Below, in pieces: positions 48,001 to 63,000 of a DNA stretch of 64,000 nucleotides. A program made the position numbers. Source of the DNA: Candidatus Aminicenantales bacterium (GTDB lineage Bacteria > Acidobacteriota > Aminicenantia > Aminicenantales > UBA4085); the NCBI GenBank assembly GCA_049515535.1, contig JBEKTZ010000012.1:1-64000 (forward strand). Direction: 5' to 3'. Position 1 is the first letter of the stretch; each line of letters begins with the position of its first letter.

Positions 48001-51000
48001 CTCACCCCGTCGGAAGGCCCTGGTACTCCCCCCGCCTTCTTCAAACCTCTATCTTTCCCTCATTCTCCGTCCGAAGATCCCTCCCCAACAGGTTTCTCTT
48101 CTCACCCTGATGGCAGCGGTCGCGACGGCCGAGGAGGGATAGGGATTTGCTTTTTCGCGCTCCGCGACATGCCTTCCTAAAAAGCTCGGAATCAATACCT
48201 CCCATCGCGTAAAGAGGATAATTCCGGCTGCGGATCGAAGTCAAGCCAAGGAGATGGCCGCGAAAGAGGCCGTCCGGCCGTATCATCGTCGCGAACGACC
48301 GGAAAATCGCCCTGAAGACGCAAGACCTCTCCCCCCTCATGAAATCGCTGACCTCAAAAATACTCCGCCGGCTCCTCGGCCGCCATGAGCGCAACCTGCT
48401 CGAAGACGCGCGACGGCGGCGGCTTCTCCGCTCCAAATGTCAGCTTGAGATGGTCGATGATCCGGTCCACGGCGGCATAATCCATGATGAAAGCGATGAC
48501 TTTCATCGTGCCCCCGCATTTGGACCATCCCCATGGCCGCCCTCTGCGCCACCCTCGTCTATCAGGGGCTCAAGCTGCTTTGCTGGCGATCCCGACGCGG
48601 TCGGAGTTTCCTCCCGCTTGATGTCTCAATCATAACGGGCAGAGAGGTCTCCGCTGTCTCTCGATTTGTGGCCCTGACTCTGAGTCCCCAAAAAATGAAG
48701 ATGCGGAAGAGCCGCCGGCCCTTCCGCATTTTTTAGGTTAAGAAAAAAGTCGAATCAGACCAATCCCTGTTCCATCATCGCTCGGGCGACCTTGAGGAAG
48801 CCTCCGATGTTGGCGCCGTTGACGTAGTTTCCGGGAGTGCCATACGCCTCGGCTGCTTCGTAGCTGGTTTTATGAATACTTTTCATAATCTGCTGCAAAC
48901 GGCTGTCGACTTCTTCCTTGGTCCAGCTCAGTCTCATGCTGTTCTGACACATCTCGAGTCCGGAAGTGGCCACTCCTCCGGCGTTAGCAGCTTTCCCGGG
49001 AGCAAAGAGTATTTTGGCATCGAGGAAGACCTCGACGCCTTCGGCCGTCGTGGGCATGTTCGCGCCCTCGACGACGACATAAACTCCATTCTTGACCAGG
49101 TTCTTGGCATCTTTGGCGTTGATCTCATTCTGGGTTGCGCTCGGGAAGGCGCAGTCGGCCTTATGATTCCAGAGGGGATTAAAATCTGAGCCTGGACTAA
49201 AAGGAGTATAGGTCACACCCTTGAATTTATGGGCATATTCTTTGATTCGGCCGCGCCGGGCATTTTTCAGGTCCATAACGAAGGCCAGCTTCTTATTATC
49301 GATGCCTGCCGGATCATAGACATATCCGTTGGAATCCGACAGAGTGACCGCTTTGCCGCCCAATTGATTTATTTTTTCGACAGTATACTGGGCGACGTTG
49401 CCGCTGCCTGAAACCAGGCACATCTTCCCGTTCATGGACTGCTTTCTCGTGGCCAGCATTTCGGCGGCAAAATAAGTTGCCCCATATCCCGTGGCTTCCG
49501 GCCGCATTAAGGAGCCGCCCCAATCTAGGCCCTTTCCGGTCAGAACGCCCGTGACCTCGTTTTTCAGCTTTCTGTACTGCCCATAGAGGAAGCCGATTTC
49601 CCGGCCACCTACTCCGATGTCTCCCGCCGGGACGTCCGTATCAGAACCGATATGCCGGTAGAGTTCGTTCATGAAAGCCTGGCACAGCCGCATGACCTCG
49701 TTATCACTCTTTCCTTTGGGGTCAAAATCGCAGCCGCCTTTTCCACCCCCCATGGGAAGCGTCGTCAGGGCGTTTTTAAAGACCTGCTCAAAGGCGAGAA
49801 ACTTCAAAATCCCCAGTGTCACCGTCGGATGGAAGCGGAGCCCACCTTTGTAGGGCCCGATGGCACTGTTCATCTGGATCCTGTAGCCCCGATTGACGCG
49901 GATCTCGCCCGCGTCATCCATCCAATTCACCCGGAACATGATCACCCGTTCCGGCTCCACGATCCTTTCCAGGATCTTCGCTTTGCGGAACTCGGGATGA
50001 TGCTCGAGAGCCAGGGAGACGGAATTGACAACTTCGAGAACGGCTTGATGGAACTCGGGCTGGGCGGGATTCTTGGCAATGACTTCGCTCATAAAATCGG
50101 AAACATAATTGCTCATCGATTCTCCTTTCTAAGAATTTACACCGCAATGATGTAAGATTGACTTCATGTCTGTACTTTCTACAAAAGAAATGTTATGGAT
50201 TTATTTGGTTCTTGTTTAGATTTTAATAAAAAACTCGGGCGAAAATACCACACTCCGGCCCCCGCGATAAATTCTATTTTCTCGATCGAGGCTTTCTTGA
50301 CATTTAAAATAGCTCAGGGTATTTAATAGAGAAGAGGATGGCGAAGAAGGCTGCTTTCACTTTTTGCTTTCGATTTTTTAGGGAAGGACAACTCGATGAG
50401 TCACAAATCGTTTAGCTCATTTGAAATGGCCCAGTCGCAGTTCGACAGGGTCGCCGCTTGGCTCGAACTCGATGGGACGACAAAAGACCTGTTGCGATGG
50501 CCGATGAGGGAATATCAATTCCTCATACCCGTCCGGATGGATGACGGCCGGACAAAGATCTTCAGAGGCCTCCGTGTCCTTCATAATGATGCCAGGGGGC
50601 CAGGAAAGGGTGGTGTTCGCTTTCATCCTCAGGAGACAATTGACACCGTCCGGGCGTTGGCGATGTGGATGACCTGGAAATGCGCCTTGATTGACATCCC
50701 TTTGGGGGGAAGCACTGGCGGAGTCATCTGCGAGCCTCACAACCTGACATTGAGAGAACAAGAGCAGATCTGCCGGGGCTGGGTCCGGCAGTTGCACAGA
50801 GACCTGGGCCCCCAAATTGACGTGCCGGCCCCGGAGGTTATGACCGGCGCCCAGCACATGTTGTGGATGCTGGACGAGTACGAAGCACTGACGGGGAAGA
50901 GAGTCCCGGGATTCATCACCGGCAAGCCTGTAGGAATGGGTGGTTCCGTTGGCCGGCTGGAAGCGACGGGTTTTGGACTCGTCTTCACCTTGCGGGAAGC

Positions 51001-60000: not shown

Positions 60001-63000
60001 TAGCCGCCCTGGATCATATAGAGGAAGTGGCTGCCGTAGATCCCGCCGGTCAGTTCATCGTCTTCCGGGAGCGGCTCGGCCCGGCCGGCGATGTCCACCC
60101 CGTACTCGAAAATGGCCGCGGCGCGGTTGACCTCTTTATAGTCGATATAAATCCCCCAATCTCTGTTTTTGCTGCCCAACCGGCCGGGAATAATCAGGAT
60201 GTAATGCTCGTTTTGCTCCTGCATTTGGCGGTTGATGCGGGCGATCCCGTTTCGAACAGCGTCATGCATATCTTTTGTGTAGATGAAGGGGGAGATAACG
60301 ACGGCGAATTTGATGCCCCTGATAACGCCGTGGCCTTGAGAATTCTTGATCGACAAAAAAGTCCTCCGGGGCCTTTCAGGGACCCGGATGGAATCGAACC
60401 TGTGCCCGGGCAACTGAGTGAGTTGGACGATGTGGAACGTTCCGTCTTCTCTGTCTTTCTTGGAGAAGTCGATGTTAAAAACGAACTCAATCTGAAAATG
60501 CGGCGAGATTCCGGTCGAGATCGCATCCATGATCTCGGCCAGTCCGGTCTTAAAACGAAAGTGGTTGTTCTGGATCAGCTCCTCGATCGTGATGAGGTTG
60601 TGGTGGATACCCAACAGTTTGATTTTGTGGTAGTTGGCGAACCGGACGTGCAGTCTTTTCATGGTCTCCAATTCCTCTCCCCGGAGCTCTCTATTTTTTG
60701 TCATGTCCAGGGCGTAGAAATATTGCTGTCCGTTCCCGATCTGGAGGAGTTTGAGAGGAATAGGATTTTTGATCGTGGCCATGGAGATCACCGGGAAGTC
60801 ATCCAAAACGGTGGCATAGCCGTGGCCGAAGGCGATTCTGGCAAAGCCTTCTTTGGGGTCTTGTGTTTTCAGGGCGTGGGGAAAGTAGGAGTTCGCGACG
60901 CCCGAGATATAGGGGTAATAGCAGGGGCCGGCGGCCGTATCGTCGAAAATGCCGGGAATGGGGTTCAAGATGACGGCCATTTTTTCCCCGCTCGAGGGAT
61001 GTTGTTTCCGGGCAAAATCGGTATAGATATGATGGATTGCCTGCTGAACCTGAAGAAGGCGCGTCTGAGGCGCGGGATGATTATTGGGGAGCATGTAGGA
61101 AGTGTATTCTCCCGCATGAATCAGGGTTGTCCCCTCCGGAGATTGGCCGGCTTCGTTGGTGGCCGAAGAGCGGACCCCGACGGGAGTCTCTCCCAAATCG
61201 TCCAATATACAAGCGATGATCTTCTCCTCTTCTCTGTCGAACTTCCCGCCTCGTTCCATAAAGTGCTCATAGAAGGCCGTGCTGAGGATATGGGTTTTGA
61301 TCTTGCTGGCTTTGGGGATCGGGCAATCGCCGATTTTGATCAAGCCGATCCCTTTTCCGCCGGGGAGGCCGCTCCCGTAGACCGTCACATTCCCGGCGTG
61401 CTCGACGATTTTCATACTTGTCTCACCACCCGAATTAGGGATTTGCTTTTTCGCGCTCCGCGACATTCCTTCCTAAAAAGCTCGGAATCAATACCTCCCA
61501 TCGCGTAAAGATGATAATTCCGGCTGCGGATCGAAGTCAAGACAAGGAGATGGCCGCGAAAGAGGCCGTCCGGCCGTATCATCGTCGCGAACGACCGGAA
61601 AATCGCCCTGAAGACGCAAGACCTCTCCCCCCTCATGAAATCGCTGACCTCAAAAATACTCCGCCTCGGCCATCCAGACGACCTGCTCGATGACGCGCGA
61701 CGGCAGCGGCTTCTCCGCTACAAACGTCAGCTTGAGATGGTCGATGATCCGGTCCACGGCGGCATAATCCATGATGAAAGCGATGACTTTCAGCAACAAC
61801 CGATCGGTTCGCTTTGCACTTCCATCCGCACAGCTCACAAGAATAGAGCATGGCCAATGCCTCAGACAAGTCAAGGGACGAGCCTTCGGCTCGCCACTCG
61901 CTCGTGGCTTATATCCACGGGCGAGTACGGCGGAAGTGGCCCCCCTGGTAAAGCCCGGGGCCCCGGCCGCCGTGGACTTCGAATCCAAAGGTCGGGGGTT
62001 CAAATCCCTCCGGGCGCGCTCTTTCTTTTATCCCCATAGAGGAGGCTTGTCGGGAACTGAGGATCCGGCTCCTCGTCTTCCCCCCTCGAACCCCTAAGCC
62101 GCAGGCCTTTGCGGAGCGGCCGAATCAATTCAGAGCAGGATTGGAGCTCATCCTCAATCCAACGCGTCAATAGACGCGTCAATAGAGAGGTGGAGGAGTT
62201 TAGGAAGTTGACGGATTGCAGGATTTTGGCTTATTATTTCTACGCAAAAAGAGACGTGATGAATAGGGAGAATATGTACGAGCTAAAAAAATATGCGGGT
62301 CGAAGACCATTATTTTATATCGAAGACCAACAAACGGCCATAAATCCCGGCTCTCTTGAAGCCTGGAAAAAACGACTGCTCGACAATTCGCTGGATCTTA
62401 TCGTCAGAGACACCCTCCCTTTTTACTTTTAACATTCTCTTTAAGAATAAAGAAGATCAGTTTACCGGCGAAAAATGAGCTTAGAATGAAAAGTATTAAT
62501 CCAGCAACAGGAAAGGAGATCCGGGAATACCGGGAGCATAGCTCTTCCGGGACCTCAGAAATAATCCGGAAAGTCCATTTGGAATGGCAAAGATGGAAAG
62601 AAACTTCGTTTGAATTCCGGGCAGATAAACTAAGGATGGTGACCGATGTCCTGCGCCGGAATAAGGAACTCTATGCCCGTCTTATGACTGAGGAAATGGG
62701 AAAGATCATCCGTGAATCCCTAACAGAGGTTGAAAAATGTGCGAATTGCTGCGATTATTATGCGGATCATGCAGGATCGTTCCTTACAGACAGGATTATC
62801 CCATCGGATGCCGGAAAGAGCTTTGTGACCTATGAACCGATGGGTGTGATCCTCGCAGTGATGCCCTGGAACTTTCCGTTCTGGCAGGTGATCCGTTTTG
62901 CAGCACCAGCATTGATGGCAGGCAATGCAGCCCTTCTCAAACATGCATCCAATGTTCCCGGGTGCGCTGTTGCGCTCGAAGAGATATTCCGGGAAGCAGG

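Follow-up and report, generated by a model that had tools for sequence, protein, structure and literature searches.

What are three genes annotated as PEP synthases doing beside two glutamate dehydrogenase (GDH) genes and a gene for a double-receiver protein? The question is raised by the window analysed here, the 64,000 nucleotides at positions 1 to 64,000 of contig JBEKTZ010000012.1 of a Candidatus Aminicenantales bacterium, for which the initial annotation proposed a dikinase-type histidine kinase that phosphorylates receiver domains. The eight genes that it had placed here are all confirmed in position, and the features are as follows.

48755..50116, minus strand: GdhA, NADP-type glutamate dehydrogenase (NF006929 equivalog, 739 bits against a cut-off of 536; catalytic GGGKGG motif intact)
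50396..51682, plus strand: Gdh2, putative pseudo-glutamate dehydrogenase (catalytic Lys replaced by Thr107, Asp by Glu147)
51701..53461, plus strand: g02354 (D1), ATP-grasp and putative swivel His domain, nothing else (PF01326 above cut-off)
52925..53458, plus strand: putative swivel-type phospho-His domain at the C-terminus of g02354 (modelled in isolation)
53424..56639, plus strand: g02355 (D2), GAF, helical region, ATP-grasp, His domain and nucleotidyltransferase (PF01326 and PF01909 above cut-off)
56632..57489, minus strand: calcineurin-like metallophosphoesterase, candidate eraser (PF00149)
57499..58242, minus strand: OmpR-family regulator without an adjoining kinase gene, a lineage-specific insert
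58310..59761, minus strand: g02358 (RR2), 483 aa, two receivers and two DUF5752-like helical repeats
59754..61415, minus strand: g02359 (D3), 553 aa, divergent ATP-grasp followed by a His domain that has two His motifs

The likely start of g02355 is at 53454, overlapping the stop of g02354.

A dikinase core without a substrate domain

A Pfam scan matched PPDK_N (PF01326) above cut-off in g02354 and g02355; g02359 gave no Pfam match down to E 0.1 and was placed in the family by BLAST, and in profile comparison its fused relatives matched a ~990-aa form of the family with a probability of 100%. Pairwise identity among the three proteins, recomputed, is 21-29%, slightly widening the 23-29% given before. 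In the tree, g02354 nests among the 990-aa proteins. The ATP-site residues are K39, R130, E377, E379, Q398 and R400 in g02354 (with the His at H521) and K356, R455, D700, E702, Q714 and R716 in g02355 (His at H843), while g02359 keeps K21, R82, E310 and Q331 and has Q308 and T333 in place of an acidic residue and the Arg; it is the member paired with a receiver, yet lacks two of the six ATP-site residues kept in other members. Across all five subfamilies the K, R, E and Q are invariant or nearly so, and in the 262 non-g02359 alignment rows the catalytic residues and the His are invariant save for one gap and a few substitutions. No HisKA or HATPase_c match was obtained on g02354, g02355 or g02359, and a search by sequence found no solved structure of any family member.

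The absence of a PEP barrel from all three proteins, claimed previously, holds: no PEP-barrel family was matched on any of them, and there is no room for a barrel, as the proteins end 63-65 residues past the His or run into the nucleotidyltransferase. Nor was one present in any family member examined. A central substrate-binding domain of the rifampin phosphotransferase (RPH)/PigC type is also missing, since PPDK_N of g02354 ends at residue 408 and the folded His domain begins at 409. The description of a dikinase core lacking a small-molecule substrate domain is thereby supported.

The C-terminal His domain

The His of the C-terminal domain is invariant in all 360 alignment rows that have a residue there. 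For H490 of g02359, the residue on which the initial annotation had relied, the counts are 83/83 in g02359-type proteins and 16/16 in fusions, and g02359 contains a second invariant His, H463, that had been missed. The fold of the domain, which had not been shown alone, has now been modelled for the isolated domain of g02354 (pLDDT 94, pTM 0.91). The top four VIA rows for this model are swivel domains at a moderate Z of 6.5-6.6, with RPH (Z 6.6, rmsd 3.3, 112 aligned) and PPDK (Z 6.6, rmsd 3.8, 117 aligned) followed by enzyme I (EI) and EI-Ntr. Foldseek returned nothing at E < 0.001 for the His-domain model and no significant match for either folded model, hhalign, run with 144 His-domain fragments on 12 true swivel domains, gave a negative result (probability 0.7%), and PF00391 does not detect the domain. 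Because the fold Z lies below 8 and neither Foldseek nor hhalign gave a match, the equivalence of the His rests on topology, and we regard the domain as a probable swivel-type phospho-His domain on a moderate match.

Coupling to a receiver module

The order of domains in g02358 is an Asp-less receiver, a canonical receiver and then the two helical repeats. The protein is homologous to the N-terminal half of the ~990-aa REC-REC-dikinase protein that is common in Bacteroidota and in Acidobacteriota, the phylum of this genome, and we conclude that g02359 and g02358 are a permuted, split form of it. The fusions of g02359-like to g02358-like parts noted earlier were recovered as 15 of 47 longer matches, 1000-1024 aa in length. 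D166, D167, D231, S265 and K282 of the second receiver, also noted before, show no variation in 21 g02358-type rows and 15 rows of fusions; in a wider alignment D231, K282, S/T265 and an acidic residue at 166 occur in 140/140 rows and D167 in 138/140, and PF00072 exceeds its cut-off in 4/8 one-piece relatives scanned. Judged by these residues, the second receiver keeps the full phospho-acceptor pocket, and it is tightly coupled to the core as had been claimed, being fused to it in both orders or encoded next to it. The module is present in exactly those 21 of 61 genomes of the order (Aminicenantales) that have g02359, and of 80 metagenome loci of g02359 that have downstream sequence, 7 lack g02358.

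The proposal of a dikinase-type histidine kinase phosphorylating receivers is thus supported in its elements (core, swivel His and receiver coupling) but finds no support as a general rule, because g02355-type proteins occur in 21 genomes of the order that have no receiver module of this kind and g02354 accompanies g02355 without the module in two near-complete genomes. The acceptor of those g02355-type proteins must therefore be something else.

Accessory domains and neighbours

Two domains of g02355 had escaped notice. The first is a GAF sensor at about residues 20-155 (fold match Z 12.6, rmsd 2.1, 119 aligned), of a type common to histidine kinases, MCPs and LuxR proteins; the second is a C-terminal nucleotidyltransferase of the pol-beta kind (G975-S976, D987, D989 and D1032; PF01909), whose GS motif and three Asp survive in 19 of the 24 long forms and are degenerate in the other 5. 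A metallophosphoesterase travels with the nucleotidyltransferase in gene neighbourhoods. The N-terminal slot of the family is held either by the receiver module or by a GAF region, and one member has four GAFs ahead of receivers and core; the accessory domains of the family are regulatory. The OmpR regulator, formerly counted as part of the system, lacks an ortholog at all 35 of the more distant g02359 loci that extend far enough downstream, and we reject it as a general cognate output; it is at most a local add-on.

The link to glutamate dehydrogenase

The catalytic pair of AtGDH1 is K102/D142, 40 residues apart (PMC7326016). T107 and E147 of Gdh2, likewise 40 residues apart, stand at the positions of the catalytic Lys and Asp, and Gdh2 appears from its sequence to be a pseudo-enzyme, a point that the initial annotation missed. 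This apparently dead protein is conserved across a clade of 19, shares just 32% identity with GdhA and has its gene co-transcribed with those of the dikinase cores; its substrate-site residues K71, K95, R187 and S362 are kept. Gdh2 lies upstream in 41 of 44 g02355 loci of the order, the other three stopping at contig edges, and 38 of the 39 genomes in a phylum sample that have the Gdh2 clade also have g02355-type genes.

A GDH gene lies at most 1.5 kb from the 990-aa form in 22 of 30 loci, and the g02359-g02358 pair is upstream of a large NAD-GDH in two loci and near glutamate-synthase-like genes in five. GDH is absent from the four fusion loci and from 13 of 30 loci of at least 12 kb. Three different GDH types adjoin family members, and no neighbour other than GDH is shared by every subfamily. 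In kind, these samples match the earlier counts of PPDK_N near GDH (8418 genomes; 90 of 245 in the order). A complex of the g02355 core with Gdh2 was predicted at 0.51, against 0.00 for the best control, a score in the range where the tool is more often wrong than right unless the contact was likely beforehand; binding of Gdh2 by the core is thus weakly predicted. Together, the locus counts and the predicted complex make the GDH link of the family stronger than previously indicated.

Two further leads were set aside. The rule that presence of g02354 implies a pseudo-GDH holds in the order, where it represents a single clade, but fails in four loci of the phylum. In 1996 a trans-acting gene was reportedly located downstream of gdhA in B. 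thetaiotaomicron. We do not count this as support, because in a Bacteroides locus arranged in this way the first gene 3' of gdhA is catalase-like by sequence, and the dikinase gene is convergent, 2 kb beyond it; BT1971 is called catalase.

Proposed mechanism and alternatives

We give an even chance to the reading that these proteins form a phospho-His switch, driven by ATP and tied to GDH and nitrogen status, in which, on our best reading, receivers act as acceptors only in some members. The core would be the half of PEP synthase that PTS enzyme I is missing, i.e. ATP-grasp and swivel His with no PEP barrel. From RPH/PPDK chemistry and the intact residues, ATP would yield phospho-His, AMP and Pi, and we infer that the swivel passes the phosphate to a protein, because there is no small-molecule site. 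In the 990-aa protein, the g02359-g02358 pair and the fusions, the acceptor would be D231, an Asp in the second receiver. The core might then bind GDH, the partner here, Gdh2, being most likely a glutamate/2-oxoglutarate sensor or scaffold because it is catalytically dead; the GAF domain would provide a second input, and the nucleotidyltransferase and phosphoesterase may add a write/erase layer. GdhA activity and transcription are candidate outputs, and the data fix neither. More tentatively, and with less than an even chance, the family could constitute a third, unrelated class of His-to-Asp kinase, whose dikinase core would convert ATP to AMP, read nitrogen status via bound GDH or pseudo-GDH and via GAF, and phosphorylate receivers.

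It is rather unlikely that GDH itself is the phosphate acceptor, with the core as a protein dikinase switching GDH and with receivers and GAF as interchangeable inputs. The N-terminal slot shared by receiver module and GAF region, the standing of GDH as sole common neighbour and the weakly predicted core-Gdh2 complex are in line with such a role, as is the reversible inactivation of Bacteroides (B. fragilis) GDH in the older literature; however, the co-transcribed Gdh2 is dead yet kept throughout its clade and so offers no activity to switch, the g02359-g02358 pair adjoins three unrelated glutamate enzymes, which makes one protein substrate unlikely, and among 78 Bacteroidales loci no histidine kinase was a conserved neighbour of the receiver-bearing gene that could feed the intact receiver.

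We consider it improbable that the family is a split small-molecule dikinase in which GDH or pseudo-GDH serves as the substrate-binding domain and bound 2-oxoglutarate or glutamate is phosphorylated, as by RPH/PigC. The conserved substrate site of Gdh2 and its predicted contact with the core would suit this, but the invariant receiver pocket, the GAF inputs and the GDH-less loci would be left unexplained, and we know of no phosphorylated metabolite of the kind needed. The characterised relatives do all phosphorylate small molecules (RPH, PMC4844700; PigC and PEPS models were matched).

An adenylate or energy sensor that binds or turns over ATP/AMP and exerts allosteric control on GDH, phospho-His being no more than a conformational state, is quite improbable: pseudoenzyme partners of GDH are known, e.g. 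the inactive APRT homologue of Thermus GDH (bioRxiv 10.1101/2025.10.31.685773, PMC9570180), and g02359 has lost two ATP-site residues, but the near-invariance of catalytic residues and His in the other rows and the intact receiver pocket argue against it. Scarcely any chance is left for a conventional PEP synthase/PPDK under receiver control, the role suggested by database names and by the census phrase 'REC with pyruvate phosphate dikinase', and as a stand-alone activity it is excluded, given that the barrel is missing, that the NCBIfam scores of all three proteins are far under cut-off (best 54 bits against 598) and that a full PPDK is encoded separately in the genome. This PPDK and a true EI, which lies on another contig, also count in favour of the switch.

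Distribution and significance

In the phylum, 79 of 151 genomes have a family member; for Bacteroides the count is 45 of 51, and there are members in Spirochaetes and archaea too. A literature search, with most subscription papers outside its reach, found no functional study, and an Atlas search returned only the family itself. The family is widespread, unstudied and annotated as PEP synthase though it lacks that enzyme's substrate-binding domain; metabolic models routinely misread it as that enzyme. New here are the apparent pseudo-enzyme state of Gdh2, the GAF and intact nucleotidyltransferase of g02355, and the three GDH types beside the family. His-Asp signalling is not known to begin with anything other than GHKL histidine kinases or small phosphodonors. 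An ATP-grasp dikinase that started it, or that phosphorylated GDH directly, would represent a novel sort of protein kinase. The third His-to-Asp class suggested above would occur, as one gene next to GDH, in most gut Bacteroides and roughly half the sampled phylum. The family is a testable candidate for control of ammonia assimilation in GDH-reliant anaerobes, with one member in a genetically tractable genus of gut commensals.

Comparison with known systems

PPDK and PEP synthase (PF01326 + PF00391 + PEP barrel) share with the family the ATP-grasp with K, R, D/E-x-E and Q-x-R and the swivel-type His domain. Unlike them, the family has no pyruvate/PEP barrel, its His domain lies at the C-terminus and is picked up neither by PF00391 nor by profile alignment, and receivers, GAF or nucleotidyltransferase are fused to its core. 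Rifampin phosphotransferase and PigC/RedH, the best matches in sequence and fold, also have ATP-grasp first and His swivel last; in the family the ATP-grasp runs straight into the His domain and the central substrate domain is absent.

EI and EI-Ntr (PtsP) likewise use a swivel His to donate to a protein, EI-Ntr with GAF input in a nitrogen context, and the GAF and N-terminal domains of EI-Ntr are among the fold matches. The family keeps the opposite half of PEP synthase, so that the donor would be ATP rather than PEP; no HPr-binding helical insert was seen in it, and the partner would be a receiver or GDH. With two-component and hybrid histidine kinases it shares sensor domains, a conserved His and a canonical receiver that is part of the same protein or encoded by the neighbouring gene, whereas HisKA/HATPase_c are lacking, the catalytic core is unrelated and some members have no receiver partner.

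In domain censuses (PMC5847659; PMC4395418) the protein family of the 990-aa form figures as the 'Bacteroides-like REC + pyruvate phosphate dikinase' response regulator. It is listed there as a domain combination only, a receiver with enzymatic output, in entries that do not mention the missing barrel, the hidden His domain, the second, intact receiver or the GDH link.

GdhA/GdhB/APRTh of Thermus thermophilus likewise retains a catalytically inactive GDH homologue as regulatory partner; in that system the inactive protein and a similar active subunit assemble into a hetero-hexamer, whereas here the putative pseudo-GDH is a distant relative of GdhA. Finally, the GlnD/GlnE nucleotidylation cascades act in nitrogen assimilation and resemble this locus in placing a nucleotidyltransferase and, here as a candidate, an eraser beside a nitrogen-assimilation enzyme, but the transferase of the family is a minimal one of 130 aa, fused to the dikinase or free-standing, and its candidate eraser is calcineurin-like.

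Organization of the locus

The locus comprises eight genes. GdhA, a glutamate dehydrogenase (GDH) with an intact GGGKGG motif, is encoded on the minus strand, divergent from Gdh2 (the second GDH) and the dikinase-like g02354 and g02355; these three converge with a calcineurin-like phosphoesterase, an OmpR-family regulator, the double-receiver protein g02358 and a third dikinase-like protein, g02359, the latter group being read from the right. Three gene junctions have 8-base overlaps. Of 21 relative loci taken around g02359, 14 show the complete order, and the sources of close homologues name Ca. 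Aminicenantales or Acidobacteriota. The cluster itself is conserved in relatives. Further elements of the window are:

48140-48505 and 61436-61792, direct orientation: ~370-bp element on both sides of the cluster, 94% identical
47879-47986 and 61866-61976: ~107-bp repeat, REP- or MITE-like
416-4681, minus strand: 1422-codon frame with an N-terminal match, confined to residues 14-238, to the Avs4 defence model (E 8e-50)

The ~370-bp element, with more copies elsewhere in the genome, is probably a transposase remnant; the ~107-bp repeat has dozens of copies (90-100%) on most large contigs and many 50-bp half copies. Positions 1-6000 form a low-GC island (34-40% versus about 57%) that also holds a 267-codon frame matching PD-Lambda-3_B/Aga_HEPN models. 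Upstream of the cluster (39000-46777) lie genes for an acyl-CoA carboxylase subunit, a thiolase/HMG-CoA-synthase/DUF35-like trio and CoA-transferases, identities mostly read from sequence and in one case confirmed by domain search.

Proposed coupling to glutamate dehydrogenase

We consider it an even proposition that this family constitutes a phospho-histidine switch coupled to GDH. In counts drawn from related genomes, whose kin are not independent, Gdh2 lies upstream of g02355 in 41 of 44 loci of the order, the other three stopping at contig edges. The dikinase family occurs in 79 of 151 genomes of the phylum, a denominator that includes G138, G260 and G163 (unpublished), which add no match. 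Of these genomes, 39 carry a separate Gdh2 clade (at least 63% identity); 38 of them have g02355-type genes and the 39th other family members. Among 48 matches, 36 pairs share a contig, and each of these pairs lies within 6 kb. Of the 30 best loci of the one-piece gene, which encodes a receiver-receiver-dikinase protein, 22 have a GDH, mostly GdhA-type, no more than 1.5 kb away, and GDH is present in 19 of 20 larger stretches hand-picked from family matches. Bacteroidales show GDH within 7 kb in 25 of 78 loci, many flanks ending early; in Bacteroides the gene occurs in 45 of 51 genomes, with GDH within 3.5 kb in 22 of the 45. In two loci the g02359-g02358 pair also stands immediately before a NAD-GDH of 950 aa, and it has glutamate-synthase-like genes nearby in five (FMN type, L259:662-6281; also L245, L260, L231 and L246). 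NADH-dehydrogenase-like subunits accompany the latter gene in three, possibly forming a bifurcating glutamate synthase. Against the link, no GDH accompanies the g02359 relatives in the four fusion loci, nor in 13 of the 30 loci that span at least 12 kb.

Gdh2 itself appears to be a pseudo-enzyme, judging from its residues: Thr107 replaces the Lys of GGGKGG and Glu147 the catalytic Asp (K102/D142 in AtGDH1, according to an excerpt of PMC7326016), while K71, K95, R187 and S362 are retained. Loss of the Lys is confined to one clade (19 of 42 Gdh2 rows; quick tree, support 89), within which the position varies between Thr, Ser, His and Asn. This clade also has g02354, the phosphoesterase and an intact nucleotidyltransferase on g02355, a domain intact in 19 of 24 long forms and degenerate in five. 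Two phylum loci carry extra GDH-like genes with Met for the catalytic Lys beside g02355-type genes (L213:17993-19001; L224:5473-7996), putatively a second kind of pseudo-dehydrogenase. In Thermus, inactive GDH subunits act as regulators, as described in the portions available of bioRxiv 10.1101/2025.10.31.685773 and PMC9570180.

A predicted complex of g02355 residues 346-920 with Gdh2 scored 0.51 versus 0.00 for the best control. The pass mark, which it clears, was attained by 116 out of 157 solved complexes and by 2 out of 215 mismatches; those that passed with 0.60 or less comprise 18 of the 157 and both mismatches. Contact agreement between runs was at least 81% and partner pLDDT at least 88, and a search of solved structures yielded no similar complex. 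The pairing was likely beforehand because of the gene order, and the model lends weak support to binding of Gdh2 by the g02355 core. Such contact would also suit GDH itself as the direct phosphate acceptor, an idea that we regard as unlikely, if worth keeping in view.

The core and its histidine domain

The three dikinase-like proteins share 21-29% pairwise identity. An alignment of 361 core sequences, drawn from five subfamilies, shows no variation at the Lys, Arg, Glu and Gln of the ATP site or at the His, save single gaps and one Glu-to-Asp change, and the D-x-E and Q-x-R motifs align with RPH, whose catalytic residues are Lys22, Arg117 and His825 (PMC4844700, in the part available). g02359 and its kin have Gln308 and Thr333 in place of the acidic residue and Arg, the fusions mostly keeping Lys, and a 27-residue insert adds a second invariant His motif, H463 (83/83 and 16/16).

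The initial annotation lacked the fold of the His domain on its own. Folded alone from 74 sequences, the 178-residue C-terminal domain of g02354 reached pLDDT 94, and a comparison with 48,161 chains placed four swivel domains at the top:

RPH 755-866: Z 6.6, rmsd 3.3, 112 aligned
Maize PPDK 383-511: Z 6.6, rmsd 3.8, 117 aligned
Extra domain of pyruvate kinase: Z 6.6
PPDK phosphoryl carrier: Z 6.5

Ranks 6, 8 and 11 go to EI and EI-Ntr, and H521 starts the helix following the fourth core strand, as in swivel domains (secondary structure read by eye). This largely closes the gap, but the Z scores are moderate, Foldseek with the domain model gave no significant match and hhalign against true swivel domains was negative, so that a swivel fold is moderately supported and doubt stays. 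A split metabolite dikinase would be in keeping with the small-molecule substrates of all characterised relatives, RPH among them, and leaves the invariant receiver pocket unexplained; we think it rather improbable.

Receivers and sensors

Among 47 longer g02359 homologues (organisms named include Ancylomarina, Spirochaetaceae and Ca. Natronoplasma), 15 are fusions to g02358; the other 32, of ~990 aa, carry these parts the other way round. The first receiver is without the acceptor Asp; the second retains D231, K282 and S/T265 in all 140 rows. In 80 metagenome loci the module is downstream of or fused to g02359 in 70, cut off in three and absent in seven. Other phylum loci have the one-piece gene in place of g02359 and g02358, adjoining the phosphoesterase. 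g02354 is nested among one-piece proteins in the tree and would therefore be a core that lost its receivers. A ~780-aa g02355-type variant without GAF and transferase adjoins the one-piece gene in L210, L211 and L214.

The earlier proposal that the dikinases phosphorylate receivers stands in part: the second-receiver pocket is intact and the module occurs in exactly those 21 of 61 genomes of the order with g02359, but the rule is not universal, since 21 genomes with full or near-full g02355 genes (11 with completeness of 90% or more and little contamination; two also holding g02354) had no module found. A direct g02358 search of five of them was empty, the 21 positive genomes of the order-wide search serving as control. 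The OmpR ortholog is present in 16 of the 21 relative loci. Among the 80 metagenome loci, by contrast, it appears in 10, each of them close to the window, and it is missing from all 35 whose g02359 has less than 70% identity and which extend 1.2 kb downstream; up to three of the 35 enter through a cross-hit.

The g02355 N-terminus has a predicted GAF fold (Z 12.6 to Nlh1, 11.7 to NifA, 10.6 to the PtsP GAF) that is a mobile sensor (9,014 clusters); of 40 hand-picked matches, the majority have kinase, PAS, MCP or LuxR domains, and the dikinase family accounts for 10. One Bacteroidales member places four such GAFs ahead of receivers and core. In the window's genome a histidine kinase headed by this GAF stands in a row with a LuxR-type regulator and, two genes from the kinase, an ammonium-transporter-like gene (G000:C2:100835-104012), identities again being our reading of the sequence. 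In several loci a separate gene between g02354 and the phosphoesterase encodes the transferase, and GdhA is followed by a GAF histidine kinase and an NtrC-type regulator. A purely allosteric sensor would suit the two ATP-site losses of g02359 and leave the conserved catalytic residues and His of the other members idle, and we see only an outside chance for it.

Comparison with known systems

The annotated activity, PEP synthase or PPDK, can point to PPDK_N in g02354 and g02355, and we give it almost no credence: the domain search matched no family in g02359, a PEP barrel was found in none of the three, their NCBIfam scores fall far under every cut-off, and a full PPDK and enzyme I are encoded on other contigs.

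The family's anatomy, conservation and neighbourhoods are established here, and its fold at moderate strength. In the phospho-histidine switch that we propose, the His would be phosphorylated from ATP, the acceptor would be a protein, receiver-bearing members would transfer to D231, and sensing may proceed via GDH or pseudo-GDH. We found no functional study of the family in the literature searched and, under each leading reading, it would be a kind of system without description there, its mechanism still a proposal. It is a member of neither PPDK/PEPS nor RPH; rather, it would work like a cross of a hybrid histidine kinase and EI-Ntr, belonging to neither.
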